Positions 36,040 to 62,941 are shown, counted from the stretch's first letter. The stretch: 64,000 nucleotides of DNA from an uncultured virus (IMG/VR IMGVR_UViG_3300031992_002320) (IMGVR_UViG_3300031992_002320), one strand, 5' to 3'. Numbers and translations: made by a program. The notes: generated by a model not told the origin, from the letters alone.

Positions 36040-36729
36040 ATGGATGTGAGTGCATTACTTGGTGGTGGTCACGGTGAGGATATGGAGGCCGTGTATGATT
36101 TGTTGGTAGGATGGGGTTCTAATGATCCCTCTTGTCCGCAGGCGGATGTGGCTTGTTATCTTACCGAGCAGGAGAAGGCGGATGTGGATGCCCTTTGTGA
36201 GCGTTTGAATGGTGTCATCTCTGGTGTGGTTGTTGTGGATAGTGATGTTGAGGATCTTGGTGGGGATGCTGCCCTTTATGGTGATGAGAAGGACATCAAG
36301 TGTTGTGTCATCCATTTCCGTCCCGAGCTTGTTTATGGGGTTTGGTGTATGTTTGCCAAGGATGATGTCAAGAGTTTTCTTGAGGACCGCAAGGAGATCA
36401 TGAAATCCTTGTATGCTGATGTGGCTGCGGACTTGCGCAAGATTCTTTCGAGTGGGACCTACAGGAATGGGGATGACTATTATCTCTATGCGGGATCCGA
36501 GAGTGGTCTGATGCCGGGGTTTGGTAGTTTCAATGGGACCTCTTATTGGAGGATTACGGAGATTGGTTATTTCGACCTTTGTACCGTGGTTTCGAAGGCA
36601 CTTATCAATTCGGGTATTCCGAAGGCTCTCGGTTATGAGTCCGCGGAGATGCCCAAGGATTTCTTTACCGTGAGGGGTGTTGTGGGTAATAACATCATCT
36701 TCGGTTTGGATTTCAATGTTTTTGAGTGA
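36040..36729 (+). CDS. Hypothetical protein
   Basis: GGAGGTG RBS, 229 aa. Confidence 0.75.
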   Translation: MDVSALLGGGHGEDMEAVYDLLVGWGSNDPSCPQADVACYLTEQEKADVDALCERLNGVISGVVVVDSDVEDLGGDAALYGDEKDIKCCVIHFRPELVYGVWCMFAKDDVKSFLEDRKEIMKSLYADVAADLRKILSSGTYRNGDDYYLYAGSESGLMPGFGSFNGTSYWRITEIGYFDLCTVVSKALINSGIPKALGYESAEMPKDFFTVRGVVGNNIIFGLDFNVFE

Positions 36730-36739
36730 GGTTGAGCTT

Positions 36740-37192
36740 ATGAGTTTTGTTACTTTCTCGTTTCTCGTCTTTGGTGTGCTCATACTGGTAATGCTGGGTT
36801 CTCTGTTTATTGTTGATCGGCTTTATATACTTCTTGTTGAGGGGATTGTGGCACTTGTGATCATAGTGAGTCTTGGGTGTATCGGTGGTAGTCCCTATAC
36901 CGATACGGTAGTGGGTAAGTTTGAGATTGTGCCGGTGGATGGTTCTTATCTGCTTTGGGTGGGTAGGACTGGTTCATCCCTTAAGGTGTTTGTGGAGTCG
37001 GAGAATGGTACTGGTTATGTGACCAAGCCGCTTGATGATTATGTGTTTGTGGGTGATGTTGCGGATGATGAGCCTTGTTATGTGGATGTATTGGATAGGG
37101 AGCGTCATTGGTTGTTTATAAAGGTCAAGACGAAGGCGTATGCCGTTCATCTTCACGAGGATATGACAGGAGGTAGAGATGACCGTGGGTGA
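36740..37192 (+). CDS. Membrane protein
   Basis: Two N-terminal TM helices; start moved to ATG 36740. Confidence 0.7.
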   Translation: MSFVTFSFLVFGVLILVMLGSLFIVDRLYILLVEGIVALVIIVSLGCIGGSPYTDTVVGKFEIVPVDGSYLLWVGRTGSSLKVFVESENGTGYVTKPLDDYVFVGDVADDEPCYVDVLDRERHWLFIKVKTKAYAVHLHEDMTGGRDDRG

Positions 37193-38129
37193 GGAAAGGG
37201 ATCATTTTGGTTATGATCCGGTTACGGATACTTATGAGGATGTGAAGGATAAGGGTGGTTTATCTGGAATCCAATGGGGGATTATCCTTAGTGTGATTAT
37301 CGCGATTATCATTGGTGTTCTGTTCGCATTGGTTGCGTATCCGTATCTGAAGGAGCATATGTGGGATCATGAGGCGCCTCCCTTTGATCTGGATGATGAT
37401 TTCAAGGCGATGTGGGAGTCCACGGCTTGTGTGGCCGTGGGGGAGAGTGTTGCGGAGGCCTTTAGTTCTGCAGATGTTGATGAGGTGTTGGACTCGGACA
37501 CGATTGTGTTCGATGTTCCGTTGCGTGAGAAGGCTGCTAAGGGCCCCGGTGGTGAGATCCGCTGGGGTTCTTCCATTATTGAGGCTGTGCCCGATGTGGT
37601 GGAGTCAGAGGAGGTGGAGTCCGAGGGGGCCTCGGCTACGCCTGCTGCCCCGGTTCTGACGGTGGATGATTATCTTGGTCTGGTGCCCGATGATGTTCGG
37701 GAGGCTTTTAGGGCCACGGGGTTCTCTGTGGTTAAGATGGACCGTGATTTGGGGACATTTCTCTATGGTGAGGGTGGTCAGAAGGTTCTTGGTGCCACGG
37801 ATCCGGCCAATAAGGTGGTTTATATCGATCAGAGGGACTGTGCGAATGCCGCCATTCTTCACGAGATGGGCCACGTGTTCGATTTTGCTGGTGGAGGCTT
37901 GGGACATGGCTGTGATGAGTTTCAGGGGCTCTACGGGGTGAATTGGAGGTCTTGGTGGAGCTCTTATGGGATGGATGTGAGCAATTATGATACCCCTTTG
38001 GAGGGTTATGCTCAGTGTTTTGAGATTTATTTCTTGAAGCCGGAGTGTCTGGATGAGGCCACGAGGGGGTTCATTTCGTCAGAGTTGGCGAGGATAGTAC
38101 AGTTTTGGGTATCAAATGAGGTTTTGTAG
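37179..38129 (+). CDS. Membrane-anchored zinc metallopeptidase (anthrax-LF/PPEP-like zincin)
   Basis: One TM helix; ILHEMGHVFD; downstream EGYAQCFEIYF. Confidence 0.75.
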   Translation: MTVGEERDHFGYDPVTDTYEDVKDKGGLSGIQWGIILSVIIAIIIGVLFALVAYPYLKEHMWDHEAPPFDLDDDFKAMWESTACVAVGESVAEAFSSADVDEVLDSDTIVFDVPLREKAAKGPGGEIRWGSSIIEAVPDVVESEEVESEGASATPAAPVLTVDDYLGLVPDDVREAFRATGFSVVKMDRDLGTFLYGEGGQKVLGATDPANKVVYIDQRDCANAAILHEMGHVFDFAGGGLGHGCDEFQGLYGVNWRSWWSSYGMDVSNYDTPLEGYAQCFEIYFLKPECLDEATRGFISSELARIVQFWVSNEVL

Positions 38130-38199: not shown

Positions 38200-39795
38200 G
38201 TGATTATGGGAAAATTATCTTTGGATATTGATCTTACAGAGGCTACGGAGGCGGCTGAGGCGGCCAACGAGGCGGTTGTAGACGAGGAGACTGGTATTTC
38301 TGCGGATGAAGGCTCTACGGGGGCAAATTCGGCTGAGAATGGCTCGAATTCGGAGGCATCTGGGGGTAAATCGGGTGACCACTCTTTGGATACGGGTGGT
38401 TCTGATGATACGGCAGCCAATAAGAAGGTCAAGAGGACCAAGAAGGTCACTCGTGAGGTTGTGAGTTTGCCCACCATCGCGGTTGGGATGGCGGATTTCA
38501 GTGATATTCACGTTGAGGATGCTTATGTGGGTTCAACGAGGGTTCGTCATAAGAATGGGACCTTGTCGGTAGCCGAGGGTTGTGATGACCTTATGCTTGA
38601 GTATCTGCCTCTTACGGCTTTGTTCGTTCTTGAGGGTGTTCCGAGGATGCGTGATGTGGTTGTGGATCCTCGTTTGGAGGCTTCGATTGCCGCCAATGGT
38701 ATCCTTGAGCCGCTTCTCGTTGTGGATGTTGGTGGGGCCGAGAGTTATTCGTTCCTTGTTCTTGATGGTGCAAGGCGTCTTGCTGTGGCTCACAAGCTGG
38801 GGATTGAGAGAGTCCCTTGTGTGTTTGGGCATGATTGGAGGACTAATAATACCGGCTTCATCGAGGCTGTTTGCAATATGCATCGTGAGTGGGGGCCGGT
38901 GGAGTTCTATAACCTTTTGGTACTTGCCCATGCCGGTGGTCTTTCGAATGAGCGTTTGCTTAATTCGGTTTGTACGGTTGATGATGGTGATTTTTATAAG
39001 CTCAGTGATATCGCGGCGGATGCGGATATGGGAGAGATTCTTGAGAAGCTCTTGGCTGGTAAGTTCCGTCACACCGAGATTGCGGTGGCTTATAAGCGTG
39101 TAGAGAGTTTGCGTAAGCAGGCCGCTATCGATGATGTTGAGGGTGAGGAGTCTGAGGAGGGTGCTGAGGCTTCTGCCGAGGGTGGCGAGGATGCGCCTCT
39201 TGTTCCTTATGATGCCCATGTCGACTTTGATGCACTTTCTGCCGAGGGTATTTCGGGTGAGGACCTTAAGAGTCAGGTTGAGAAGGGTGATTCCATCGAG
39301 GGCTTTGGTGCTCATCAGCAGGAGGTTGGCAATCGTGAGTGCATCGATCCGGCGATTCGTAAGGCGGTTATGATTCGTTCTGCTGGCCGTTGTGTATGTT
39401 GTGGCCGTGGTGGTGAGAGTTATGTGGACTGCCTTGATTGTCATCATATCGTGCCCGTGTTCCTTGGTGGTAAGGATGAGGTTGATAACTGTGCAATGCT
39501 CTGCATCACTTGTCACCGTATGGTTCACTTGTATGGCAATGGATCCTTGGTTCTTGATGATGCTTTGGAGAAGAAGTATTTTGACCTTACCGATGAGGAA
39601 CTTAAGCTCTATCCGAGTGAGGGTATCTTCCTTGCCGAGCGTGATAGGATGAGCCGTATTGTAAGGCTTGGAACCATCATTCGTGAGGGTGCGGCGGTTC
39701 AGAAGAAGTCGCGTGAGCAGCTTCGTGATGAGCATCCGGTTGGCAACCTTGGCAGGAGAATGCCGGGTGTGAATGGTGTTCAGACAGAGGCATAG
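38200..39795 (+). CDS. ParB/Srx N-terminal domain fused to a C-terminal HNH nuclease
   Basis: SIAANGILEPLLV...LDGARRL; CVCCG...CHHIVPVFLGGKD...N...LCITCH. Confidence 0.85.
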   Translation: MIMGKLSLDIDLTEATEAAEAANEAVVDEETGISADEGSTGANSAENGSNSEASGGKSGDHSLDTGGSDDTAANKKVKRTKKVTREVVSLPTIAVGMADFSDIHVEDAYVGSTRVRHKNGTLSVAEGCDDLMLEYLPLTALFVLEGVPRMRDVVVDPRLEASIAANGILEPLLVVDVGGAESYSFLVLDGARRLAVAHKLGIERVPCVFGHDWRTNNTGFIEAVCNMHREWGPVEFYNLLVLAHAGGLSNERLLNSVCTVDDGDFYKLSDIAADADMGEILEKLLAGKFRHTEIAVAYKRVESLRKQAAIDDVEGEESEEGAEASAEGGEDAPLVPYDAHVDFDALSAEGISGEDLKSQVEKGDSIEGFGAHQQEVGNRECIDPAIRKAVMIRSAGRCVCCGRGGESYVDCLDCHHIVPVFLGGKDEVDNCAMLCITCHRMVHLYGNGSLVLDDALEKKYFDLTDEELKLYPSEGIFLAERDRMSRIVRLGTIIREGAAVQKKSREQLRDEHPVGNLGRRMPGVNGVQTEA

Positions 39796-39820
39796 TTGAT
39801 AATTTGTTATACAGTTATTT

Positions 39821-39854
39821 GGGGTATTCCTTTTGTGGGGGTACCCCTTATTTT
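39821..39854 (+). terminator. Rho-independent terminator
   Basis: GGGGTATTCC / GGGGTACCCC followed by TTATTTT. Confidence 0.75.
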
Positions 39855-39876: not shown

Positions 39877-40992
39877 ATGGTGTCACGAGTTAAGGTTTCC
39901 AATGTCCGTTCTGTGGGTGGAGTGGATGTTTGTGATGTTGAGTTTTTCGATACCGATGGTTCTCTGCCTAAGTTAGAGGGTGTGCCTTGTGTGTCTGTTT
40001 GTAAGTTCATGTCGGGTGCGGAATCCGCTGTGGAGACGGAGTTGGATACTGGCATGGTTCAGAGTTTGTCGGGTGGATCCGGAGGATCTGGTGATGAGAG
40101 TGATTTCCATAAGCTCATTATGCAGGGGTTTAGGGATAATCGTCTGGTCAGTGACTTGGTTGACTTCGGGTTCTCTGATGATAACCTTAGGGAATTGGCC
40201 TTGATGCATCGTGATGGTAATGAGGATCTTAAGTCCTACATCGAGGATTTGCTGGAGGATTGCAATTTCCATACGGAGTGTGGTGCTTTCAGTGAGGGCA
40301 TGTATGATGATTATCTTGGTGAGGATGATGCCACGGGTGCCTTTTGCATGGATGACATCGTGTTAGGGGACCGTAGTAGTATATTTTATTATCCCGATGT
40401 AGACTTTGTTAACTGTGTGGGTGTACCCGTGCATGATTATAAGGCTTTGGATAAGTGGGCGAGGCGGCATGATGTGTATAAGAGTGGTAGATGTGATAAG
40501 ATTGGAGTTTTTTTCAATCTTACTTTGTCGGGGTTAAAGAAGTTGCATAGGCGCATGCATGCTTTTGATTCGGGGCTTATGGAGTGTGTAGAAGATACGG
40601 ATGTAAGTATGTATGCAATAAAAGGTGTTTGTGATCTGAGACCTCTGGTTGAGAATATTGGAGTTGTAAATGATTTTGATCGGGTTATGTCTGGGGAGGT
40701 TCGGTGTACTGAGGGGCGTGTGCTGGAGGATGCTATAGACTTTAGTTTTGAGTTCACTATGGGGAAAGATAATTCTGTCTGGGATGGGGCCTCTATTATT
40801 GGTTTGCATCTGATGGAACAGGATAATGATGGTGGTGATTTCTTCTTTGGTGGGTTAGAAAGCGTGCATCTTTATGATGAGGAGTTGTTCAGTGTGGCGC
40901 GTATGGCCTTCATGCAGAGGTTTGGATTAAAAGGGGCCATTCTTGGTGAAGGGCTTCGTGGCTTGATTGGGAAGGAGATTCAGTTGGCATAG
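39877..40992 (+). CDS. Shared-N-domain family member 1
   Basis: MVSRVKVS...CDVEFFDTDGSLPKLEGV; GGAGGT RBS; start moved to ATG 39877. Confidence 0.75.
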   Translation: MVSRVKVSNVRSVGGVDVCDVEFFDTDGSLPKLEGVPCVSVCKFMSGAESAVETELDTGMVQSLSGGSGGSGDESDFHKLIMQGFRDNRLVSDLVDFGFSDDNLRELALMHRDGNEDLKSYIEDLLEDCNFHTECGAFSEGMYDDYLGEDDATGAFCMDDIVLGDRSSIFYYPDVDFVNCVGVPVHDYKALDKWARRHDVYKSGRCDKIGVFFNLTLSGLKKLHRRMHAFDSGLMECVEDTDVSMYAIKGVCDLRPLVENIGVVNDFDRVMSGEVRCTEGRVLEDAIDFSFEFTMGKDNSVWDGASIIGLHLMEQDNDGGDFFFGGLESVHLYDEELFSVARMAFMQRFGLKGAILGEGLRGLIGKEIQLA

Positions 40993-41004
40993 TGGAGGTG
41001 TGGT

Positions 41005-41793
41005 ATGCTTTCAAAGGTTAGTTTGACCGCATGTGGTGATAATGTTTTTAATGTGGTTCTTACGGATGATGTTCTTGGAGACTTGCCGGAGCTTAATGGG
41101 ATTAGTGCCAAGGATATTATTGCGTATTTGAGAGGTAGTGAGGGTGTAGACTGCAATTTCAAGATTGATGCTTCGCGTGTAGTGTTGGATGATGATCTAT
41201 TTGAGCCAGAGTCGCGTTGGTTTAAGGATAAGTCTTACTTGGTTAGGGATAAGGTGTGGGTGCCACAGAATTCTGTTGGGATTCGGCCTAATGTTACATT
41301 TGGTCAGATGCAGTTCGTGTTCGATGTTCTTACGGATGAGATTCGTGATATGACAGATAATGTGTATTGTTGTTCCTATGTGAGTGGTGAGTATATTAGT
41401 CATGGTTCTCGTCAAATGGAGGATTATCGAGAGTCTGCTCATACTGGGTTCATTGTTAATGTGCAGGATGGGACTGTTACGTATGGTATCGAGAAGCTGG
41501 TCCTTGTTAATAAGGGCTTACATAGGGATGTCTTAGAATATAAAAACACTGGGAGTGTATCCATTCGGAGTTCAAAGGTTTTAAGCATGCTTTCTGGGTT
41601 GTCAGTGAATAGAATTATTTTTAGAGAGTCCTTTGATAGCAGTCGGGATGATGGGGAGGCTCTTATTTTTGTGAATGAGTCAGACATGTATGTCTGTGTT
41701 AAGTTGGATCCTGACTTGGTTAAAAACTTTAATAAGCATTATACGAGTAGGACGGATTGGAGTTCCATACCGTTGAGTGATTTTGATTGTTAA
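41005..41793 (+). CDS. Shared-N-domain family member 2
   Basis: MLSKVSL...FNVVLTDDVLGDLPELNGI...CNFKI. Confidence 0.8.
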   Translation: MLSKVSLTACGDNVFNVVLTDDVLGDLPELNGISAKDIIAYLRGSEGVDCNFKIDASRVVLDDDLFEPESRWFKDKSYLVRDKVWVPQNSVGIRPNVTFGQMQFVFDVLTDEIRDMTDNVYCCSYVSGEYISHGSRQMEDYRESAHTGFIVNVQDGTVTYGIEKLVLVNKGLHRDVLEYKNTGSVSIRSSKVLSMLSGLSVNRIIFRESFDSSRDDGEALIFVNESDMYVCVKLDPDLVKNFNKHYTSRTDWSSIPLSDFDC

Positions 41794-41817
41794 TCCTTTT
41801 GTTTAGGAGGTGGATAT

Positions 41818-43077
41818 ATGGTTTCGAAGATTACTTTGTCTGATGTTGGTGGGGCCTTTGATATGGTTCTTACCGATGATGTGCTTGGGGATTTGCCCAC
41901 TCTCAATTCCGTTTCGGAGGAGAGTGTTATAGCGTATGCGAAGGGGGCCACTGGAGCCACCTTTAATTTTGAGATCGTGGGTAATCGTGTTGTTCTTGGT
42001 GGTAAGCCGGTGGCCAAGCCCAAGGCCAAGGCTGTAGCTGGGGATGGCAGTAAGGCGATTCAGAAGAAATTCAATGCCTTTATAAATAAATATTGGGAGT
42101 TCGGTGATGAGAATTGTAGTGCGTCGATGTGTACATCTAAATACTATGGGGATTGGTTTCATGTGAAGAAGGGTGTGTCCCCGGCTGATGTATATCGTGA
42201 CTTGGTTGAGCTTAAAAAGATGTCGGGTATGTCTGTGAGGGATTTAATTTTTGGGTATACTCATCCTTGTGTGAAGGGTGGTGTGTTCCATTATAGTCAT
42301 TACACTCATTATCCGTATGAGAGTGCTAAGACCAAGGAATACTGGAAGAGTGTTTATTATGCCATTGGGGAGTCTTTGGAGTCGTTATACAAGAAGCTTG
42401 ATTCCATTGATAAGTCCTTGGATGCCACTCTCGTTTATATCGATTGCGGTGTTTGTACTTGGGGTAATATCCCGGAGGAGTTCGTGACTGATGATGTCAA
42501 ATACCATTTTGGCTCGATGCGGTGTACTAAAAAGTTCTGTGTGGAGTCGGAGCCCACTAAGGCGGATCTTAAGTCCCTTAAGGAGGATTTATGGTGGAGC
42601 GACATTTCGGATTCGTTCTTCCCGATTTCTGTGGATTTGGCCAAGGATATTTTGAAAAATAATTCGGTGTTGTTGAGGGCCATTCTACGCCGTGAGGGTA
42701 CTAAGTATTATGATTTGGGTGCGGACTATGTAGATGCTTTAATTCAGAGTCGATCTTGGGGTACCGCAAGTGTGAAGGATCTGTTTAGGGCCTTGAGTTC
42801 TGCAGAGCCTTTGCCTGTGTTGACTCTTAATTATGTTGTGGCTCAGCATCCGAATTCTGCGGCTGAGGTGCTCTTTGATATGGTTGCCAAGCAGAAGCGT
42901 TATAGTTCCGAGTATGAACTTAATACCGAGGATGCGAACTATGGTAGATATGTTGGTGTTGTGAAGGCTCTTACGAATGAGAATTTGCTTGGGATGATTA
43001 ATGTGAAGCCTTTGTTATTTGATATGGTGATGGATGCGGATCGTAGGGAGATGCTTCGTAGTATGCGTAGGGGTTAA
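41818..43077 (+). CDS. Shared-N-domain family member 3
   Basis: MVSKITLS...FDMVLTDDVLGDLPTLNSV...FNFEI. Confidence 0.8.
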   Translation: MVSKITLSDVGGAFDMVLTDDVLGDLPTLNSVSEESVIAYAKGATGATFNFEIVGNRVVLGGKPVAKPKAKAVAGDGSKAIQKKFNAFINKYWEFGDENCSASMCTSKYYGDWFHVKKGVSPADVYRDLVELKKMSGMSVRDLIFGYTHPCVKGGVFHYSHYTHYPYESAKTKEYWKSVYYAIGESLESLYKKLDSIDKSLDATLVYIDCGVCTWGNIPEEFVTDDVKYHFGSMRCTKKFCVESEPTKADLKSLKEDLWWSDISDSFFPISVDLAKDILKNNSVLLRAILRREGTKYYDLGADYVDALIQSRSWGTASVKDLFRALSSAEPLPVLTLNYVVAQHPNSAAEVLFDMVAKQKRYSSEYELNTEDANYGRYVGVVKALTNENLLGMINVKPLLFDMVMDADRREMLRSMRRG

Positions 43078-43098
43078 TGGTATTCAGGAGGGTGTGAT

Positions 43099-43515
43099 GT
43101 GGTAGTTTATGGTTTCTATGGTTTAGGCAAGTCCACCTTTTGTAAGGAGCACTCGGAGTGTTGTCGTGATTTGGATGTTCAGATTGATGGGGATCCTATG
43201 GTGACCGAGCGAGAGGTTCGTGAGAGTGCTGGTTGTGGTGGTTTGGTGTTTACCAATTGTCTGTGTGTATTTGATATTGTGGATATCGCTTTCATCCCGG
43301 ATGATGTGAATTTTGTTATTGATAGGTTGCGTCGGAGGGGTAATGTGTCCGATGAGTTTATTGATTTGTTTGTTCGTGGGGAGTTTGTGACCTTGCCGTG
43401 TGATTATCGTGGTAAGGTTATTCGTTTGGGTGCGGATGAGTATATTTCGGATTATGAGGATTTGCTGATGCAGGGTGTTCATTATCCTTATTTTCCGTCT
43501 ATGGATTGTGATTAG
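43099..43515 (+). CDS. Small P-loop kinase-like protein
   Basis: N-terminal VVYGFYGLGKSTF; RLRRRG lid-like motif. Confidence 0.7.
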   Translation: MVVYGFYGLGKSTFCKEHSECCRDLDVQIDGDPMVTEREVRESAGCGGLVFTNCLCVFDIVDIAFIPDDVNFVIDRLRRRGNVSDEFIDLFVRGEFVTLPCDYRGKVIRLGADEYISDYEDLLMQGVHYPYFPSMDCD

Positions 43516-43533
43516 GCAAAGGGGGTTCTGTTT

Positions 43534-44025
43534 ATGCTGGTGAAGGTTTTGGTGTTGAATCCTATAAGTCATGGGACCGAGGATTTTTGTGATATTCAGC
43601 TCATTGATGATTCTTTGGGTAGTCTCCCTTTGTTGAGGAATGTAAATTGTAGTCAGTTGCATGAGTATCTTAGTGGGGCTGGTTCGGTGGAGACGAATTT
43701 TGAGTTGAGTGGTAATAATTTGGTTATGGTGGATGATCAGCCTTATTTCCCTAATCGCAAGCTTGTTGAAAAGAGTTCGGTTGTTTTTGATCCGAATAAT
43801 ATTTTTGGTAAGACTTTGGAGGATTGGTATTTTGCGGCGTGTGGTATGTATGAACAGTATTGTTCGGAGAATGGTGGTGATGATGCGGATTATGAGGAGG
43901 TTGTCTCTTTGGATGATTTCAAGGCGGATTTAGAGGGGTTGTATGCCGAGGCAGTTAATTCTGGTGATGATGCTGGTGGGTTTTGTAGATTGCTGGATGA
44001 CTGGGTATATAATCAGGTGAACTAA
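43534..44025 (+). CDS. Shared-N-domain family member 4
   Basis: MLVKVLV...CDIQLIDDSLGSLPLLRNV...TNFEL. Confidence 0.8.
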   Translation: MLVKVLVLNPISHGTEDFCDIQLIDDSLGSLPLLRNVNCSQLHEYLSGAGSVETNFELSGNNLVMVDDQPYFPNRKLVEKSSVVFDPNNIFGKTLEDWYFAACGMYEQYCSENGGDDADYEEVVSLDDFKADLEGLYAEAVNSGDDAGGFCRLLDDWVYNQVN

Positions 44026-44037
44026 GAGGAGGTTTAT

Positions 44038-45294
44038 ATGCTTTGTAAGATTGAGATTTCCAATGCTGTACATGGTAGTGATAGTGACTACTGTACGGTT
44101 GTTCTTGTGGATGATGTGTTTGGTCGATTGCCGGAGCTTCATGATGTTCCGGCATCACAGTTGTATAAGTATTTGGAGACCAGCACCGAGGAGATGGTGT
44201 GCAACTTTAGTCTGGGTGCTGATACCAATAGGTTTGAGACGGTTGATGGTGCGCCCTTTAGTGACGATGCCAAGACTGTGGTTGATGTTTGGAGGGAGTT
44301 TAATAATTCCGCGTGTTTGGCGGAGCATAATCGAGATAATAGGGTTATTTTTGCTTGGGATGATCATTGCTGTTGTGTGCCACGGGTTATAGACTGTGAT
44401 GGTGGTGTTAAGGCCAATTTATTTTTATATGGGTACGACGTGGAGAGTAGGAATTCAGGTGTGGCTGTTTATTGTGTGCCGAATCGTGGTTTCGTGGTTT
44501 TATCCAAGCGTTTGGGTGGTCTTAGCCATCCTTGGGGTTACGTGAAGAGGCTTCTTTCAGAGGGTGCGGCAAGAGCTCTTGTCTTACCGGTTAGTGCTGG
44601 TGTGGGTTGGCATTTTACGGGGGCTCGTGTTGCGGATGAGTTAGGAGACTTAGGGAGAGGTTGCAAGGATGTGGTGATGTACACCTATGAGAAGTCTGGT
44701 GAGGTTTGTGATGTTATATCATATACGGACGCATCTGGAATATTGAGGAGTTGTGTGAATGATGATGACGTTGCATATGAGCTTGATTGTTTTGAGGATA
44801 CTTGGCTCTGTGATGATGCCTTGAGTCGATATGAGCACTATTTATCAAAGTTGAGTAAGAGTGAGCCTTTTTCTGATGCTGTGGGTGAGCCTTTTTCTGG
44901 ACCTGTGGGTGACCTTGAGGGATGGGATGTGGAAGCTATACAACAAAATATGCAGTGGGCCCATGATAAGTTGATTCGTAGGATCAATGATACCTATCGG
45001 GTTCTCAATATGTATTGTGATGTAGGGGCTGGTGAGCCGGGGCTTATTGTTCATTCGGGTGATTATGTTTCTTATGGTGTTGATGTGAGTGGGTATCCGC
45101 TTGGTCAGTATGAGATTATTGATGCGGACTTGAATGATACATTCCATGAGCTCGGTTTTGATGAGGTTGTTCTTCGTGGGGCCGATAAGGATCATGTTGG
45201 TTGTCACAAGACATCTGATGAGTCCCTTACGGTATATGTGGACTTGGCCGCCGATTATGTGAGAGGGTTTAAGAGTCACATAGGTAAGAGGTAG
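44038..45294 (+). CDS. Shared-N-domain family member 5
   Basis: MLCKIEIS...CTVVLVDDVFGRLPELHDV...CNFSL. Confidence 0.8.
   Translation: MLCKIEISNAVHGSDSDYCTVVLVDDVFGRLPELHDVPASQLYKYLETSTEEMVCNFSLGADTNRFETVDGAPFSDDAKTVVDVWREFNNSACLAEHNRDNRVIFAWDDHCCCVPRVIDCDGGVKANLFLYGYDVESRNSGVAVYCVPNRGFVVLSKRLGGLSHPWGYVKRLLSEGAARALVLPVSAGVGWHFTGARVADELGDLGRGCKDVVMYTYEKSGEVCDVISYTDASGILRSCVNDDDVAYELDCFEDTWLCDDALSRYEHYLSKLSKSEPFSDAVGEPFSGPVGDLEGWDVEAIQQNMQWAHDKLIRRINDTYRVLNMYCDVGAGEPGLIVHSGDYVSYGVDVSGYPLGQYEIIDADLNDTFHELGFDEVVLRGADKDHVGCHKTSDESLTVYVDLAADYVRGFKSHIGKR
44861..44912 (+). repeat. 24-bp tandem duplication at an interdomain linker
   Basis: GTGAGCCTTTTTCTGATGCTGTGG followed by GTGAGCCTTTTTCTGGACCTGTGG, then GTGA. 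Confidence 0.8.
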
Positions 45295-45310
45295 TTTGGA
45301 GGTGTTTTTA

Positions 45311-45760
45311 ATGGCTGGTAGTTCTAATGGTTCTGTACCGCAGACTGTGGTGAGGTTACGTTCAAGGGTGGCGGCTTTGAGCAGTGCGGAGGCTGCGCTG
45401 GGGCATAATTCGGAGGAGTTTAAGCGACTCAAGGAGGAGTGTGAGCGTTGTGTCATCTTCAGGGCCATATCTTTTGTCATTGGGGTTCTGTTGATGCTCA
45501 TATATCTGCTTCTCGTTGCACCGAGGAACTCCGTTGGTGGTTTTGATATTCAGTTTATATTGCCGGCCATTGTTGTGCTTGTGGTTTATGTTGGTGTCAC
45601 CGCCTATATGGAGTCGAGTATTAATTCACCTTGGTTCGGCAAGTGGAATTTTTATTATGACTGGTATCGAGGGCACAGCAGTAGGCGTGGGCGTGGTGGT
45701 GAGTCGCCGGAGATTACGTCAGATGCGATATCAAAGTTTGTGAAGGGGCTTTACAGTTAA
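45311..45760 (+). CDS. Two-TM membrane protein
   Basis: GGAGGTG RBS, ATG 45311; two hydrophobic helices. Confidence 0.7.
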   Translation: MAGSSNGSVPQTVVRLRSRVAALSSAEAALGHNSEEFKRLKEECERCVIFRAISFVIGVLLMLIYLLLVAPRNSVGGFDIQFILPAIVVLVVYVGVTAYMESSINSPWFGKWNFYYDWYRGHSSRRGRGGESPEITSDAISKFVKGLYS

Positions 45761-45770
45761 GCCCCTTTTC
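45743..45770 (+). terminator. Rho-independent terminator
   Basis: AAGGGGCTT (45743-45751) / AAGCCCCTT (45759-45767) followed by TTC. Confidence 0.75.
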
Positions 45771-45864
45771 CATTGTTCATTTTATTTCCCTTTTTGGTAT
45801 ATGTTGTATTACTTTTAGGGTTTTTACTGTTTTAATCCATATTTGGGTTTTATAGGAGGTCTAT

Positions 45865-47721
45865 ATGATTACTAAGATGGAGGTTAGTCACGGTTCGGGT
45901 GATGGGTTGTTTAATCTTACCCTTACCGATGCTATGTGTGGGGCGTTGCCCATGATGCCTGATGTATCCATGATGGGTGTTCTCGTATATTACGATGGTT
46001 GTGATAATATGCCGGAGTGTAATTTCACGGTTCGTGATGATGGCAATGGTGGTCGTAAGATTGTCATCAATGGTGAGATCGCCGAGGGTGATGCGGATGT
46101 TGAGGTGCATGGTGGCACTATTGTAAATCTATCTGGTCTCAAGGCAGAGCAGGAGATGAAGCGTGAGAAGGTGAAGAAGATGACTGCTGCCGAGAGGCGT
46201 AAGAACCTTTCTGGTGGTCGACAGTCTGCGGTTAAGGAGATGCTTGCGGCTGTGGAGGAGGGTATCCGTAATTCCGAGGATCAGACCTTCTTGGGTTCGA
46301 AGCAGAGAAAGGATTATGTAGCTGCACAGAAGGAGGCTTGGGAGCGTCAGAAGCAGGAGAATCTCAAGCGTCTTGCGGAGAGGACTGAGGCCACATCTGG
46401 GCAGGTGGATGCTGGAGAGATAATTTTGGATCCGACCACGATGAGTTTGCGTAGGAAGGATTCTTGGTTGGCGGAGGTTTCCGTGAATGGTCTTGAGGGG
46501 GCTGATACGGAGTTGCCTTTGGATGATGGTTCTGATATTCAGTTCATGAAGGATACTGGGATGATGTACTGGGGTTTGCTTTCCGAGGAGGGCTTTAAGC
46601 GTGAGGTGAATCTTGCACAGTATTACTGGAATGGTAGTTCCGTTATGCATTGTAAGACCGTGGGTGATAAGCTCAGGGCCGTTATTAAGTATATTGGTGA
46701 TTATGATATCTATATGGGCAGTTTGTTGACGGTGCTCTTGAGTAAGGGTACTCGTAAGGACCTTACGGGTATTCTTGCACAGGGTGGTGCCTTGGTTCTC
46801 TTTAGGGGCAAGGATGGGACGCGTCAGAGGACTGCTTTTGTTGATGGTACAAATATGTTCATTTCGATGGAGATGCTCTCGGCTCTGCCCTTACCTCATC
46901 TCGCATTTTTGATTATGCATGAGCTCAGGCACCTGCTTAACCGTGATTGTATGCGTGGGGTGGGGCATTTCCGTAAGTATTGGAATATCGCAATCGATGC
47001 GGTGGTTAATATGGAGCTTGCAAAGCTCTATTGTTTGGACAGGTTCAAGGATCCCTATTCTCTTATCGATGGGGTTCACGAGCGTGGATTTGTGAAGTTC
47101 TCTGATGTTGCACCGAAGGTTTCCAAGGATGGTGCCGGTAAGATGAATTTTGATGAGACAGCGGCGGAGTTGGATGCCATCTTTGGTGGTGGGCTTGGTA
47201 CTTCCGTTACTGCCGAGGCTGAGGCATCTGCCGATGTTGTGTTTAAGCCGAGTGGTGATGATATGATTGCGGATTGTACTCAGGGGCCCATGTTCGTTTA
47301 TGGTGGTGTGTTCTTCCCGGACCTTGATATTTCGGTTATGAAGGCCGAGGGCTTTTATAAGTATCTCATGTCAAAGGTTCAGGATAATGGTCTTATTGGT
47401 GCTGGTGCGCCGCAGCCGATGAGTAATGCTAATGGCAAGACTCCTACGAAGCTCACAGATGAGGACTTGAATAATGGTATGGGTTCGGATGAGCTTCTGT
47501 TATCTGATCCTTCAGCTCAGATGGGTGATATGGATTCTGATATGGGCCAGGCGGTAACTATGGATAGTGGTGAGGAGGCTGCGGAGAAGCTCAAGAAGCT
47601 GATCATGTGTCTTAAGGAGGGTGTTGATGTGTTTGGCAATCCTTTGCCGGCAACTGCACAGGCCTCTGTTCGTGCCATTGTGAATAAATATGTTGGGGCA
47701 TTTTCATTGCCGCAGATTTAA
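45865..47721 (+). CDS. Shared-N-domain member 6 fused to a DUF2201_N-type putative metallopeptidase
   Basis: MITKMEVS...FNLTLTDAMCGALPMMPDV...CNFTV; charged helix; TAFVDG, FLIMHELRHLL, WNIAIDAVVN. Confidence 0.8.
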   Translation: MITKMEVSHGSGDGLFNLTLTDAMCGALPMMPDVSMMGVLVYYDGCDNMPECNFTVRDDGNGGRKIVINGEIAEGDADVEVHGGTIVNLSGLKAEQEMKREKVKKMTAAERRKNLSGGRQSAVKEMLAAVEEGIRNSEDQTFLGSKQRKDYVAAQKEAWERQKQENLKRLAERTEATSGQVDAGEIILDPTTMSLRRKDSWLAEVSVNGLEGADTELPLDDGSDIQFMKDTGMMYWGLLSEEGFKREVNLAQYYWNGSSVMHCKTVGDKLRAVIKYIGDYDIYMGSLLTVLLSKGTRKDLTGILAQGGALVLFRGKDGTRQRTAFVDGTNMFISMEMLSALPLPHLAFLIMHELRHLLNRDCMRGVGHFRKYWNIAIDAVVNMELAKLYCLDRFKDPYSLIDGVHERGFVKFSDVAPKVSKDGAGKMNFDETAAELDAIFGGGLGTSVTAEAEASADVVFKPSGDDMIADCTQGPMFVYGGVFFPDLDISVMKAEGFYKYLMSKVQDNGLIGAGAPQPMSNANGKTPTKLTDEDLNNGMGSDELLLSDPSAQMGDMDSDMGQAVTMDSGEEAAEKLKKLIMCLKEGVDVFGNPLPATAQASVRAIVNKYVGAFSLPQI

Positions 47722-47734
47722 GTGAGGTGAGCGT

Positions 47735-49588
47735 ATGCAATTACAGGAGTTGGTTAAGACTGGTGCGATTTCAGATCTTAATGTGTTTTTATCGGATATG
47801 AGTGCGGCCTTGTCCCTTTGTGGTATGAATCCGGATGGTTCGCAGAAGGGGGCTAAAAATCAGCAGAATCAGCAACAGCAGAATCCACAGCAGGGTGGTT
47901 CTGGTGGTGGTTCTGATGCTTCTGATGCGGATGATGATTCCGATGCTGAGGATTCCGATGATTCTTCCGGTGGTGGTGGTTCACAGGGAGGCAATTCCAA
48001 GGAGTCAGACGACTCTGAAGATTCACAGGGTGCCGGTGGTGATAGTGCTGATGCTCCGCAGGCTGGGGATCAGGGTAGTGGTACCGGTGATCCGCAGGAT
48101 GGTGAGTCTGGTAGTGGTGCTGGGGATCAGGAAAGTGATGAGCAGGGGGATGGTTCTGGTGATTCACAGGATGGTTCTTCTGGTGGTGGGGATTCCACGG
48201 GTGCTAATAATAAGTCCAATGGTGGAGCCTCTGGGGAGTCATCTGATGATTCTGATGAGGGTAGTGACGGAATTCCAAAGGGTAGTAATGGTAAGGGGAA
48301 TAATAATGATGCCTTTAAGCACAATGCTGACGATGAGGGTTCGGATGGTGCTGTCGAGGATTCTATGGGATCCATTGGGGGTGAGGAGTCAGGTGTTAAT
48401 ACCTTGAATGACTTATCCAAGATGCTTGATTCTGCCTTGGATGGGAAGACCCCGGAGGTACCGAAGTCCCTTGATGCTTTCGGTGGTTCTATGGATATGG
48501 ATAAATACGATGAGTTGTGGAATGACCTTGTTGAGACTCAGAATGATGATGGTGTGTCCACAAATATCGGGCATGATGGTGATTCCTTGGATAAGCTTGA
48601 ACAGGAGGCTAAGGCTCAGCAGGAGGCTCAGGAGGCTCGTGATAGGATCATGAAGGCTATGGAGGAGCAGCTTAATGCAAATGGTGATGGCTCTTATGGC
48701 GGTGGTTCTGCAGGTTCTGATGGTGGTTTGCGTGAGCTCGGTCTTTCCAAGGGCCTTGATGGTGGTTTGTTGTCTTGGGAGGATTGGATGATTGATAAGT
48801 TGACATCCGTTCCCGGTGTCAGTAGGGCTTGGGATAGTATGTCGGGCCGCCCGATGTATTCCCTTGCGAATGATATGCCGGCAAGGGGTACTGTGGATGT
48901 TTTGAAGCCGGCGGGTATCACTTGTGATGTGTTTATTGACTGTTCGGGTTCAATGTCGGATCCGATGCTTCGTACCATTTTCTATAATCTGCTGGCTTTG
49001 TCTAATTGGGCCGAGGAGCAGATTTCTCGTATGAATGAGGATGCAGGTGCCGAGGGTATCTTCGAGATGCGTGTGTTCTTCTGGGATGATGAGGTATTGA
49101 GTTTTGCAAGTTGTGAATCGGCGGATGACTTTGTCAAGGGTGGTTTCAATGCCATTTCTGGTGGTGGTACGGACGGTTCATGTGTGTTCCGTTTTATGAG
49201 GTACCTTGACGGGGTTGTTATGTGGGATGGTTCTACAGAGACCGGTATTCCTTTGTTGGACAACCTGAATGAGACGGAGCTCAGGAGGTTCATTGATATG
49301 CGTGATAGCAGAATCGATAAGTTCTCTTATGTCAAGAGTTATGACGGTTCTGCAAGGGCTCTCAAGGTTGTGTTTACGGATGGTTACTTTGATTGGGATG
49401 CTATGCCGGATAAGCCTTGGTTGGAGACCGAATACAATGATATTTCTTGGACTGATGAGGATCTCTTGTGGGTTTTTGTTACGGATGACTATAAGCCTTC
49501 ATCTTCTTATATCGAGAATATGCGTCAGAATGTGCCTTATGGTAATGTCGCTTTCTTGGGAAGTAAGGCGAGTGTGGTTGATGTCTAA
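47735..49588 (+). CDS. VWA-like domain protein (DUF2201 C-terminal type) with long D/G/S/Q-rich linker
   Basis: MIDAS motif VFIDCSGSM, GGGTD, VFTDGY, LLWV. Confidence 0.85.
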   Translation: MQLQELVKTGAISDLNVFLSDMSAALSLCGMNPDGSQKGAKNQQNQQQQNPQQGGSGGGSDASDADDDSDAEDSDDSSGGGGSQGGNSKESDDSEDSQGAGGDSADAPQAGDQGSGTGDPQDGESGSGAGDQESDEQGDGSGDSQDGSSGGGDSTGANNKSNGGASGESSDDSDEGSDGIPKGSNGKGNNNDAFKHNADDEGSDGAVEDSMGSIGGEESGVNTLNDLSKMLDSALDGKTPEVPKSLDAFGGSMDMDKYDELWNDLVETQNDDGVSTNIGHDGDSLDKLEQEAKAQQEAQEARDRIMKAMEEQLNANGDGSYGGGSAGSDGGLRELGLSKGLDGGLLSWEDWMIDKLTSVPGVSRAWDSMSGRPMYSLANDMPARGTVDVLKPAGITCDVFIDCSGSMSDPMLRTIFYNLLALSNWAEEQISRMNEDAGAEGIFEMRVFFWDDEVLSFASCESADDFVKGGFNAISGGGTDGSCVFRFMRYLDGVVMWDGSTETGIPLLDNLNETELRRFIDMRDSRIDKFSYVKSYDGSARALKVVFTDGYFDWDAMPDKPWLETEYNDISWTDEDLLWVFVTDDYKPSSSYIENMRQNVPYGNVAFLGSKASVVDV

Positions 49589-49661
49589 TATTTTGGTTGT
49601 TTTGTAGTGGGTTGTATTACATTTGGTTGTTATACATGCTTTATGAGTTAGGAGGTATGAT

Positions 49662-51560
49662 ATGAGTAATGGTTTGTTAGATCCCGTAGGACGTGCGGAA
49701 GATCTGCAGAATTCACAGGAAACTATTACGCTCAGTGGTATTCGTGAGATGATTAAATCTCGTATGCTTGCCATTCAGCGTGAGTATGCCTTGGCGGGCA
49801 GAGAGTTTATCAAAAATTATGATGGGGACAGGATGGCTGCAATCACGGCGCTCGATACTTATTTCGAGCCGATGCCGGGTGTTGATGATATCATGAAGTC
49901 CTCTGCCACATTGATTACCTCTACCCCCGGTATTGGTAAGACGCAGACGATCTCGCAGATCTGTGAGGAGCTTGGTATTGGGTGTGTTACGCTCAATGTT
50001 TCGAGTTTGTCGAGTGATACAGTTCGTGGTATTCCGATGGTTATCAAGAATAACGATTTCATTCGTGATGAGGATGGGAATATCATTACCACAGAGGGTG
50101 GTGGGGTTGGTACTACCGAGGTTGGTGGTACGCTTAAGGTTGCCCCTTATGCTGGTTTGCCGGTAACTCGTGATTCGGCGGCTGCAATGGGTTGGACGGA
50201 TGCTCAGATTTCCGCCTTTGCCAGAAAGCCGAATACGGATCTTGAGAAGGCTCTTGGTTGGGAAGGTGGTTTCGCGCCGAAGTTCGGTGTGTTCGTTATA
50301 GACGAGTTCTTGGCGGTTGATAAGAACTATCAGGCCGAGCTTAGACCTCTGTTTACCTTTGAGAATGGTAACCGTGGTTTCGTAAGTTCGGGTTATCTGA
50401 TGCCGAGGAACTGGATGGTTATCGCCTTTGGTAATGGTATTGGTCAGGGTGGTAGACGTAGTGATGGTTTGGATCCCTTTGTCGCCAATGCGTTCTGTGG
50501 TGGTATCTACACCTTGCTGGCATCTCCCAAGGATTGGTTGAGTTTCGCTGGCGCCAAGGGTTATCCCGATTTGATTTGTGGTTTCATCGAGTATTCTGCG
50601 ATGCAGGATCATGAGCGTCACATCGGTGACTTGGCTTATATTCCGCCTAAGGGTGATTTGGAGTATAAGACAAGGGGTGGTATTACCTCACCTCGTATGT
50701 GGGAGGCTCTGTGTCTGCGTATGATAACTGCGGCGCATGATGAGGAGGCTCGTAGCAGACTTGGTAATAAGACCTTGGTTGAGGTGCTTGCGGAGCAGGC
50801 TGCGAATGCGGAGGATCCCAAGGAGCGTTCTCTTTGCAAGCGTCTTGCAACTCTGAATACTATGTTGGAGGTTATGGCACCCGAGGAGGTTGTTAAGGAG
50901 AAGCCGGCCAAGGGTGGTAAGAAGGATAAGGATACGGATGAGGATAAGCCGCCTAAGGGTAAGGTTTTTGCCGGTGGTGGTTATGTGGATGTTGATACGG
51001 TGTTGAAGCTCGCTCATGCGTTGATGCCTTCAGTGGTTTATAGCCGTTTTGAGGGCTACTGCACAGGTTTGGTTGAGGTTTCAGCACTTGTGGATGCCAC
51101 TGATATTCTTGAGAAGGGTGAGGTTGATCTCAAGGCTCTTTCCAAGTTTGTTAATACCTCTGGTGGTGAGCTTCTTGCCAATCTCGTTACCACACTTTGT
51201 GGTTCGGAGATGCGTAGAAGGATTGAGGTTTTCAATGCCGAGAAGAAGGGCGTTGGTGCTAATCTCAAGAGTAATTCATCCGAGGCTATTCATCTTTGTA
51301 CCAATTATGCAAATTTCCTTAAGTGGCTCATCGCGTCACCTGTTGGTGAGGATATCACGATGTGTCATGCGGTTGGTGATCGTTTTGGTGGCATTCGTGT
51401 TACGGACGGTAGTGGTGCAAGAGTGGATATGTTCACTTGCTTGAAGAAGCTCTATGCAATGATGATTTCCACGAAGGCCATTACCTTGGGTGATGTTAAT
51501 GGGGCGGATAATTTCAAAGTTTATTTGCAGATGTTTGCGCCCGCATACTTTAGAGATTAA
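49662..51560 (+). CDS. MoxR/AAA_5-type AAA+ ATPase
   Basis: STPGIGKT, VRGIP, FVIDEF, IAFGN, SPRMWE. Confidence 0.82.
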   Translation: MSNGLLDPVGRAEDLQNSQETITLSGIREMIKSRMLAIQREYALAGREFIKNYDGDRMAAITALDTYFEPMPGVDDIMKSSATLITSTPGIGKTQTISQICEELGIGCVTLNVSSLSSDTVRGIPMVIKNNDFIRDEDGNIITTEGGGVGTTEVGGTLKVAPYAGLPVTRDSAAAMGWTDAQISAFARKPNTDLEKALGWEGGFAPKFGVFVIDEFLAVDKNYQAELRPLFTFENGNRGFVSSGYLMPRNWMVIAFGNGIGQGGRRSDGLDPFVANAFCGGIYTLLASPKDWLSFAGAKGYPDLICGFIEYSAMQDHERHIGDLAYIPPKGDLEYKTRGGITSPRMWEALCLRMITAAHDEEARSRLGNKTLVEVLAEQAANAEDPKERSLCKRLATLNTMLEVMAPEEVVKEKPAKGGKKDKDTDEDKPPKGKVFAGGGYVDVDTVLKLAHALMPSVVYSRFEGYCTGLVEVSALVDATDILEKGEVDLKALSKFVNTSGGELLANLVTTLCGSEMRRRIEVFNAEKKGVGANLKSNSSEAIHLCTNYANFLKWLIASPVGEDITMCHAVGDRFGGIRVTDGSGARVDMFTCLKKLYAMMISTKAITLGDVNGADNFKVYLQMFAPAYFRD

Positions 51561-51572
51561 GGAGGTGCACTG

Positions 51573-52859
51573 ATGCGAACTTTTAGTTTGGATTACAGTA
51601 GGGTGTCTGATTTGCTTAAGCCTTTAGGTTTCAGTAAGGCCAAGGGTAACGGCAAGTATGAGTTGAGTGTCAATACCGCTGAGGATGGAGATGAAGGACT
51701 TCTTCATTGGAAGGTGGGCATGTTTGGGGGATTTACCTTTAACTGTCCGCCTTGGGGTGAAAACTATCCGAAGTTGGTTGGTATGATTGAGCCGGCATTC
51801 AAGATAGTGGTTGATGGCAAGGTTGTGGGTGTTGAGCTTGTGTTGGCATCCGTCAATGCTTTCATAACCCTTAATCAGTATGTTGAGAGATTTGAGGAGC
51901 TTTGTACCAAGCGTTTCTCCGTTTTTGGTGATGATCCTCATAAGTATCCCTTGCTTAAGGATGATGGTTCTTCAGGGCTTTGCAAGATTGCCATTCCGTA
52001 TTTCTATACTGTGGGTGGTAATGTGATCAAGGAGAACCTTGGACAGCGTTTACTCTATGATGTTATGGCGGAGCTTAATGCAACGGCGGCTGCAAATCCG
52101 AATCTCTATAACGAGGTGAGACGTATCACTTGGGATTGTGGCAAGAAGGGTTATCTTCGTGGTGAGGCCGCTGGTTGGGTTTATAATCTCAACAGTGATG
52201 TTTCGCTTGAGGAGGTGTCCATCTCCAAGGAGCTTTATGATAAGTTCTTGATGGATCCGGCGGTTCGTGCTTTGACTGAGGTGCCCGAGGACTTGTCTGA
52301 TATGCTTTCAGAGGCTGATGGTCAGACAACTAAGTCTGAGTTTACGGCTCGTCAGCGTTCTGTTATAAGTCATTTCTCATCCAAGGGAACTCCGGGGGTT
52401 GACCTCATTGGTAATCCGAGAATCCCGGCGAGACGAATGATTTGGATCATGAATGCGCTTGCTCAGTATGGTGATTATGTGTATAACTTTGTGGGCAAAG
52501 TTTATCCGGACTGGCTTGCAAATTCCGAGGGCTATGGTCAGTATCTTGGTTATCGTGAGTTGGGTGAGGCCTCTCCGTTTAATAAGGATCCGGAGGACGG
52601 TGGTACCTGTGCGGGATGGTCTGATGAGGCATTCCGTGAGGGACTCCTTGGAGGTAAGCTCGTATCCACTCCGTCTTGGTTTCCGACTGGTTTCGGTATT
52701 ATAGATGCGGATATCGCCCGTGGTTTAATCGCCGCGGCTGTAGATGACGAAGCTGGTTTGATTAGAAGGCTTGATACGGCTGTTTCTCCGAATGCCATGG
52801 ATGGTATGGTGGTTTTGTTGGACAACGATCTCTACGAGGAGCAGTGGTTAGCCGAGTAG
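51573..52859 (+). CDS. Hypothetical protein in the AAA/VWA operon
   Basis: AAGGAGGTG RBS, 428 aa. Confidence 0.8.
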   Translation: MRTFSLDYSRVSDLLKPLGFSKAKGNGKYELSVNTAEDGDEGLLHWKVGMFGGFTFNCPPWGENYPKLVGMIEPAFKIVVDGKVVGVELVLASVNAFITLNQYVERFEELCTKRFSVFGDDPHKYPLLKDDGSSGLCKIAIPYFYTVGGNVIKENLGQRLLYDVMAELNATAAANPNLYNEVRRITWDCGKKGYLRGEAAGWVYNLNSDVSLEEVSISKELYDKFLMDPAVRALTEVPEDLSDMLSEADGQTTKSEFTARQRSVISHFSSKGTPGVDLIGNPRIPARRMIWIMNALAQYGDYVYNFVGKVYPDWLANSEGYGQYLGYRELGEASPFNKDPEDGGTCAGWSDEAFREGLLGGKLVSTPSWFPTGFGIIDADIARGLIAAAVDDEAGLIRRLDTAVSPNAMDGMVVLLDNDLYEEQWLAE

Positions 52860-62932: not shown

Positions 62933-62941
62933 GGTGTTTGA

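Follow-up and report, generated by a model that had tools for sequence, protein, structure and literature searches.

The window analysed here is a 64,000-nt stretch of DNA from an uncultured virus (IMG/VR IMGVR_UViG_3300031992_002320), in which positions are counted from the first letter. Between positions 39877 and 47721 it carries six genes whose products start with the same small domain (the N-domain) and continue into unrelated C-terminal parts, here termed cargo. The gene family is real and statistically well supported; it is modular, evolves fast and is founded on a small domain that is new, and its architecture follows a known principle. Because unrelated, fast-changing parts stand behind the same domain, the N-domain probably plugs different proteins into one shared partner. 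We tentatively propose that it may act as an adaptor similar to the effector-associated domains (EADs), coupling the variable proteins to a hub composed of a metallopeptidase, a VWA-like protein and an AAA+ ATPase that are encoded by the last array gene and its neighbours.

Six array genes share an N-terminal domain

The six N-termini align over their first ~65 residues, and Met1 as well as the D, G, L and P of a D-x-x-(x)-G-x-L-P motif are invariant. We built leave-one-out hidden Markov models (HMMs) from five N-termini at a time and searched them against all 702 six-frame open reading frames (ORFs) of at least 40 aa in the window. The omitted members were recovered with E values of 1.1e-8, 7.5e-18, 6.6e-14, 1.2e-16, 1.2e-12 and 2.2e-8. 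The top non-member gave an E value of 0.16, therefore the window contains no seventh copy. An initial annotation, made from the sequence alone, had described six genes of 163-618 aa with a common N-terminus at these starts; the ORFs are present, and an HMM built from the N-termini is significant, with left-out members at E 1e-8 to 1e-18 and non-members at E values of at least 0.16. BLASTP comparisons among the N-termini aligned 11 of the 15 pairs at E 1e-3 or better. After residue 70, no pair of cargo sequences gave a BLASTP match better than E 0.13, in agreement with the earlier description that the proteins diverge behind the leader. The NF-x-[ILV] motif reported for five of the six members was confirmed, g39877 being the exception with T-E-L-D in its place. 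The A content is 0.225 for cargo, compared with 0.202 for both the N-domain parts and the window as a whole, so that the reported A-richness of the cargo holds in direction but is a small effect.

We considered gene conversion between paralogs or a repeat at the DNA level and rejected both, as only short matches of 31-84 nt at 75-81% identity were present. When an N-domain profile was run against 1.84 billion representative proteins, 13 of them matched. Eight are true members, all of them orthologs or variants within this element lineage; the other five are HYR/Ig-like and coiled repeat proteins that match over 5-8 short stretches each and were judged spurious. The N-domain family is restricted to this element lineage.

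The N-domain is predicted to be compact and has no recognised relative

We modelled the N-domain of g41005 (residues 1-66) with AlphaFold2, aligning 18 N-terminal sequences taken from the window and from two related loci. The model has a predicted local distance difference test (pLDDT) score of 90.1 and a predicted template modelling (pTM) score of 0.74 and shows a compact beta/alpha fold, composed of a long beta hairpin (residues 2-11 and 14-21), a strand (30-34), a helix (35-42) and three short strands (52-66). The invariant residues D21, G25, L27 and P28 (g41005 numbering) are located in the modelled loop that joins strands 2 and 3. The model of full-length g39877 reached a pLDDT of 52.3, with values of 27-36 for residues 58-101 after the N-domain, which is consistent with this segment being a flexible linker.

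The N-domain found no significant relative in any of the collections searched. No Pfam family matched the region even at E values up to 5, and PHROGs, NCBIfam and PADLOC gave no match. The best hits were at E 0.4 in a profile search of the PDB, at E 0.12 in a Foldseek comparison of the model with the PDB and at E 0.17 in BFVD, while the ESM Atlas feature search gave a best score of 0.79, equal to the noise level, and returned nothing for g44038. When the model was aligned with 48,161 chains using VIA-align, the best match was the YeaZ-like ASKHA subdomain (Z 4.8), followed by FACT PH-like, TolR and eL38 chains (Z 4.0-4.4), none of which exceeds what common arrangements score. The earlier remark that the domain is unrecognised is therefore upheld, and no known DNA-binding or enzymatic family was matched, all sequence and fold searches being non-significant. 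No conserved cleavage motif was found at the junction between N-domain and cargo, and the literature searches made, on DUF2201 and on rumen extrachromosomal elements, yielded no paper describing the family. We read the N-domain as a previously uncatalogued small fold that probably folds independently and is likely to be non-enzymatic. The cargo gave no family match besides the peptidase of g45865, and the cargo of g41818 finds orthologs only.

Organization of the array

All credible genes of the window (1-64000), including those described below, lie on the plus strand. The stop codon of the gene upstream of the array is at 39795 and is followed by a terminator-like hairpin (39821-39847; 11 pairs, six of them G-C, and a T run) and then by the ATG of the first member at 39877, which is its true start rather than the upstream TTG at 39796; this agrees with the original note that the array starts after a terminator. 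Member 1, g39877 (39877-40992, 371 aa), consists of the N-domain (residues 1-~60), a Gly/Ser linker and orphan cargo. Member 2, g41005 (41005-41793, 262 aa), combines the N-domain (residues 1-66) with orphan cargo, and member 3, g41818 (41818-43077, 419 aa), has a Pro/Ala/Lys linker between N-domain and orphan cargo. In member 4, g43534 (43534-44025, 163 aa), the N-domain is followed by an acidic C-terminal module of ~85 aa, and in member 5, g44038 (44038-45294, 418 aa), by a mosaic orphan cargo. Member 6, g45865 (45865-47721, 618 aa), has a charged linker that leads to a DUF2201_N-type metallopeptidase domain. Two genes without an N-domain, one encoding a 138-aa protein with a Walker-A-like GLGKST (43099-43515) and the other a basic protein of ~150 aa with two hydrophobic segments (45296-45760), break up the row, thus the six genes stand in the order described but do not form an uninterrupted array.

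Intergenic gaps are 1-104 nt throughout from 39877 to 52859, giving an operon-like linkage. Each array gene has a GGAGG-type site 6-9 nt upstream of its ATG, as expected from the claim that every gene carries its own ribosome-binding site, and an own Shine-Dalgarno sequence was present at 11 of 11 starts checked (all but 52874). Promoter-like sites on the plus strand numbered 0 of the 14 found in 36-52 kb, and no signal peptide or transmembrane (TM) segment was detected in the six array proteins. Acidity was dismissed as a sign of DNA mimicry: 48 of 52 computed window proteins have an isoelectric point below 6.1, and the other four are basic (9.0-9.6). Two RNA-library runs from one sample of one study (X3 and X8) contain contigs with 99-100% identity to segments of the array, such as 41121-41461 and 45778-46052. 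Contigs of this kind are no proof of transcription, and bins left uncovered carry no meaning. The summed depth of these contigs is higher at 49-53 kb than over the array, again without being proof of transcription.

Cargo is exchanged between related elements

To follow the family across elements, we compared the window with two related loci (L002 and L003), which provided 13 ortholog comparisons from three related elements. Identity to the related loci is 97-99% for backbone proteins and 64-95% for array proteins. In every one of the 13 comparisons the N-domain is conserved better than the cargo, with nonsynonymous rates (dN) of 0-0.077 vs 0.028-0.235. The ratio of nonsynonymous to synonymous rates (dN/dS) is 0.14-0.66 in cargo vs 0.04-0.05 in the backbone DnaB-like, ParB-HNH, AAA and w36040 proteins. 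The cargo of g39877 has a dS of 0.52-0.58 vs 0.07-0.14 in its own N-domain, a four- to eightfold excess, which indicates that this cargo was replaced by recombination, and identity profiles show mosaic replacement within the cargo of both g39877 and g44038. At the nucleotide level, g44038 and its L003 counterpart are 93-95% identical in codons 1-60, 52-85% in codons 61-200 and 84-100% at the C-terminus, and a stretch of ~80 codons is missing from L003.

Insertions and additional genes are found as well. In relatives of g43534, an insertion of 682 bases follows the N-domain immediately (after window position 43776) and results in a 390-aa form, and the insert shares a ~75-residue 'module A' (37% identity) with the start of the g39877 cargo. 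Orthologs of g41818 are 88% and 76% identical. In the relatives a seventh family member of 297 aa is located between the first two array genes, and an extra zinc-ribbon-like gene of ~200 aa (two CxxC pairs, without N-domain) separates the g41818-like gene from the 43099-like one (about 11270-11870 in L003 and about 9510-10100 in L002), at a place where the window has a 21-nt gap (43077/43099). Contigs of runs X4 and X5 contain the same zinc-ribbon gene insertion, with 613 bases in X4. Beyond L002 and L003, rearrangements of the same kinds, in cargo only, are seen in contigs from two DNA runs of other studies. The N-domain is thus the better conserved part, and cargo segments are replaced, inserted and deleted between elements. 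A tag with swappable cargo had been proposed for these genes, and the conservation asymmetry in 13 of 13 comparisons, the cargo replacements and the low-confidence Gly/Ser-rich linker all support this architecture. Some genes outside the family also evolve fast (78-92% identity in the 36677-38129 region, with w37179 at 88%, and 83-86% for 43099-43515), therefore the variable zone is wider than the N-domain family.

A split peptidase-VWA-like protein and an AAA+ ATPase adjoin the array

The last array protein, g45865, matches PF13203 (DUF2201_N) at residues 313-387, with 25.4 bits for the whole protein and 27.3 bits for its C-terminal part against a cut-off of 23.2. The match covers only positions 29-101 of the 271 in the profile, and the HExxH motif is present as HELRH at residues 352-356. 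The same protein matches positions 46-113 of phrog_1314. The following gene (47735-49588) encodes a protein with an acidic, low-complexity N-terminal half and a VWA-like C-terminal half, which matches phrog_1314 positions 135-342 (E 2.2e-5) and contains MIDAS-type residues (DCSGS 402-406, T479 and D549); a homolog search with this protein led to orthologs only. Although phrog_1314 (394 positions) is labelled 'HNH endonuclease', it spans DUF2201_N and VWA. Since consecutive parts of it are matched by g45865 and then by the 47735 protein, a peptidase-VWA-like protein is split here; ~230 additional residues follow the peptidase part, and the VWA part is preceded by ~260 acidic residues of low complexity.

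The gene at 49662-51560 encodes an AAA+-type ATPase with a P-loop (PGIGKT) and matches to phrog_1297 (E 2.9e-7), PF00004 (E 0.0016) and AAA_19 (E 0.004) as well as an RFC1-like match (E 4e-5); the homolog search returned a single ortholog that is 99% identical. A comparable gene pair is listed for the N4-like Delftia phage RG-2014, where gene 36 encodes vWFA and DUF2201_N in fused form and gene 33 an AAA protein (PMC5735904). The literature searched contained no functional account of DUF2201.

A tentative adaptor model

We favour the adaptor proposal because the arrangement follows the pattern by which EADs were defined. According to this model, the N-domain would be joined to C-terminal parts that are unrelated and evolve fast, with a short flexible linker in between, and one copy would be carried by a component of the hub itself, the HExxH peptidase half of the split DUF2201-type peptidase-VWA protein. 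The VWA half and the AAA+ ATPase would complete the hub, to which the remaining N-domain copies would bring five or six interchangeable accessory proteins. Contact could be made from N-domain to N-domain or through a common receptor, for instance by the MIDAS site of the VWA part binding the invariant Asp loop. The turnover of cargo suggests a role in an arms race (defence, counter-defence or competition) of the element in a ruminant-gut Firmicute-like host. That the domain binds at all, which partner it binds and what role this serves are what we infer from this arrangement. It is tempting to go further and picture a plug-and-play 'effector rack', in which six or seven fast-exchanged orphan proteins would be mounted on the split metallopeptidase-VWA-AAA+ machine of a ~175-kb mobile element coded on one strand, but we regard this fuller picture as doubtful.

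Several observations weigh against the adaptor proposal. Besides the peptidase, the cargo contains no recognisable effector domain, and the model of the g39877 cargo (pLDDT 52) is too poor for a fold search. The family is seen in a handful of near-identical elements only, which makes co-occurrence statistics impossible, and the 13 ortholog comparisons are not independent since they come from three related elements. Pfam holds models of EADs, and the N-domain falls outside the catalogued ones because it matches no Pfam family; moreover, six or seven copies are present here vs the two or three typical of EAD systems. The VWA and AAA proteins were found to carry no N-domain copy, and the VWA assignment of the 47735 protein draws on the phrog_1314 match and the motif, Pfam detecting no VWA family. 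Finally, the 49662 ATPase has no match to the MoxR families (PF07726 / PF07728, AAA_3 / AAA_5). The initial annotation had named a MoxR-VWA module as one of three possible destinations of the tagged proteins, and the AAA/VWA module is indeed the best supported of the three by gene context, but the MoxR identity was not confirmed, and the gene probably meant, at 61617, is McrB-like.

A rather unlikely alternative, in our judgement, is that the six genes are independent paralogs whose N-termini have a common function, such as binding of a host target, a ligand or nucleic acid, or self-oligomerisation, and whose C-terminal parts would diversify specificity; there would be no hub and the neighbourhood would be incidental. 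Tandem and lineage-specific expansion of the family is in line with such an origin, the conserved loop could serve as a ligand or target site, and the VWA and AAA proteins are without a copy of the domain. Furthermore, the whole region is an accessory fast zone that includes non-family genes (w37179 at 88%, w43099 at 86% and the zinc-ribbon gene). Independent paralogs would, however, leave it to chance that the protein split between peptidase and VWA has one of its halves among the family members, within this tightly spaced row of genes. They are also difficult to reconcile with an N-domain that is small, terminal, separated by a linker and thus adaptor-like, and that has no fold relative among nucleic-acid-binding or enzymatic proteins (best Z 4.8, Foldseek E 0.12).

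Genomic setting and further alternatives

Window positions 31818-53074 are identical to part of a 175-kb metagenome contig (L001), and the runs holding this stretch are labelled sheep or bovine gut metagenomes. The base content of the window is strongly asymmetric (G 0.309 vs C 0.162, T 0.328 vs A 0.202), and the GC skew is positive in each 1-kb window, at +0.22 to +0.51. This extreme and uniform strand asymmetry suggests one-directional replication of the entire element. The window contains no tRNA genes. Searches of plasmid and phage collections showed no similarity to the array DNA, tblastn of the AAA and peptidase parts gave no match in phages, and the scans made of IMG/VR viral contigs and of GTDB-species genome contigs detected no related locus. 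We treat the element as large, undescribed and plasmid-like or phage-like, with a putative Firmicute-like host, the latter because of the GGAGG ribosome sites, the distant Bacillus-type FtsK relatives and the clostridial-type feruloyl-esterase domain described below.

On its 5' side the array is adjoined by a ParB-HNH fusion gene (38200-39795; ParB N-terminal domain at residues ~159-209, HNH nuclease at 398-443) that is 98% conserved in the relatives. Other genes for DNA handling encode a clamp loader (3740; phrog_5846, E 5e-41), an SNF2 helicase (30880), a DnaB-like helicase (34468; phrog_19), HNH nucleases, and C5 and N6 methyltransferases. Behind the hub genes, 52874-57145 encodes a protein of 1423 aa that has a hydrophobic segment at its N-terminus and, at residues ~370-512, a domain resembling feruloyl esterases (CE1). 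Among solved chains, this domain is closest to those of the esterase domains in the clostridial xylanases Z and Y (E 9e-9); a domain of the fibre-degradation type is unexpected for a mobile element. At 61617-62573 a McrB-like GTPase (NF008457, E 5.8e-62; AAA_5) is followed by two unassigned ORFs (62546-64000), and the locus is probably a McrBC-type restriction module. The 8635-29160 region resembles a block for a membrane machine. It comprises proteins of 979 and 1812 aa with three and seven hydrophobic segments, small proteins, an AAA_31-like protein (18786), a weakly matched VirB4-like ATPase (21980; NF045971, E 8e-6) and an FtsK/EssC-like ATPase (24120; PF01580, E 2.7e-12; TIGR03928, E 7e-14), and its large proteins have no sequence match in Pfam, PHROGs, NCBIfam or the PDB.

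The presence of VirB4-like and FtsK/EssC-like ATPases and of large multi-TM proteins raises the question of whether the N-domain could be a recruitment or translocation signal to an apparatus resembling a type IV secretion system (T4SS), through which the array proteins would be delivered into recipients. Some conjugative-plasmid proteins are early anti-defence proteins, and the cargo could be of this kind; its fast evolution would be expected on meeting varying recipients. With neither a signal peptide nor a TM segment in any of the six, the proteins could be exported only by a dedicated route. We consider this unlikely, and less likely than a hub adaptor. The ATPase genes lie 13-18 kb upstream of the array, with replication genes in between, and both matches are far under the family cut-offs. 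In addition, known T4SS signals are C-terminal and type VII secretion substrates are helical, and export would concern just one half, the peptidase, of a split cytoplasmic protein. Routing to the T4SS-like machine, as the initial annotation had also suggested, has no specific support.

It is very unlikely that the element is a large phage in which the N-domain targets proteins into the capsid or another assembly and is then removed by the array metallopeptidase. The replication genes do match phage families (the phrog_5846 clamp loader, a YunG-like protein and the phrog_19 DnaB-like helicase), and a protease gene within the tagged family as well as a linker behind the tag would suit such processing, but the protease is itself tagged and the junction is without a conserved cleavage motif. 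No capsid, portal, terminase or tail family is found among the 53 proteins of the window, which represents 64 kb of the ~175-kb element and leaves ~110 kb outside, nor does the phage collection or, by close search, IMG/VR contain relatives. Least credible of all is a polymorphic toxin/immunity locus with an N-terminal trafficking domain, variable C-terminal toxins and immunity genes: despite the constant N-terminus, the variable C-terminus and the small non-family genes after two members (43099 after g41818, 45296 after g44038), Pfam, NCBIfam and PADLOC reveal no toxin, immunity or known trafficking domain, the next gene is a family member 12-24 nt on after g39877, g41005 and g43534 and the VWA-like gene 13 nt on after g45865, so that these four have no small candidate immunity gene behind them, and one of the 'cargo' parts is a peptidase with VWA and AAA alongside. 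No toxin or immunity signature was found of the polymorphic effector systems with which the genes had earlier been compared.

Significance and comparison with known systems

If the adaptor proposal is true, the N-domain would provide a handle on the widespread, uncharacterised pairs of peptidase-VWA and AAA genes in phages and plasmids, and on orphan fast-evolving proteins that are likely to take part in conflicts of the element with hosts or rivals in the rumen. As the N-domain is small, confidently modelled and separable, its binding partners can be fished for directly. It would also mean that a mobile element employs, with a fold of its own, the adaptor-based coupling of variable effectors that has so far been predicted chiefly for vWA-MoxR systems on chromosomes. 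The fuller 'effector rack' picture, if it holds, would carry coupling of the EAD or death-domain kind beyond the chromosomal immune systems of multicellular bacteria, to the weapons that mobile elements use. Should the genes merely constitute a lineage-specific paralog family, they would be of modest interest.

EADs, as characterised by Kaur, Burroughs, Iyer and Aravind (2020, eLife) for vWA-MoxR and related NTPase conflict systems, are small, non-enzymatic, terminal and lineage-specific domains, with one copy on a core component and others on variable effectors encoded by adjacent genes; they are proposed to couple effectors to core systems via homotypic contacts, and some have an alpha+beta fold (PMC7159879). 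The array resembles these systems in having a small terminal domain, read as non-enzymatic, of ~65 aa at residue 1 of all members, with one copy on a protein of the putative AAA/VWA-linked module and five on adjacent orphan proteins, in a lineage-specific manner. In contrast to EADs, the array N-domain is without sequence match to any Pfam family, the ATPase lacks a MoxR-family match, and the putative core protein that carries the tag is a DUF2201_N peptidase, separated from its VWA half, and neither a VMAP nor an iSTAND. The array also differs in its six or seven copies and in a cargo without the usual recognisable effector domains. Furthermore, it resides on a mobile element of a gut community, whereas EAD systems occur in multicellular bacteria.

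Polymorphic toxins resemble the array in that the N-terminus is constant, the C-terminus varies and recombination takes place where the two meet. The array, however, is without secretion signal and without known domains for trafficking, toxicity or immunity, and most of its members are not followed by an immunity gene. The second close comparison is with the DUF2201 peptidase-VWA and AAA pairs of other mobile elements (PF13203, phrog_1314 and phrog_1297, as in RG-2014), with which the array has in common the HExxH motif, a MIDAS-containing VWA-like part, a nearby AAA gene and the location on a mobile element. Here, however, peptidase and VWA are encoded by two genes with large insertions, and the peptidase half has gained an N-domain that is common to five orphan neighbours.

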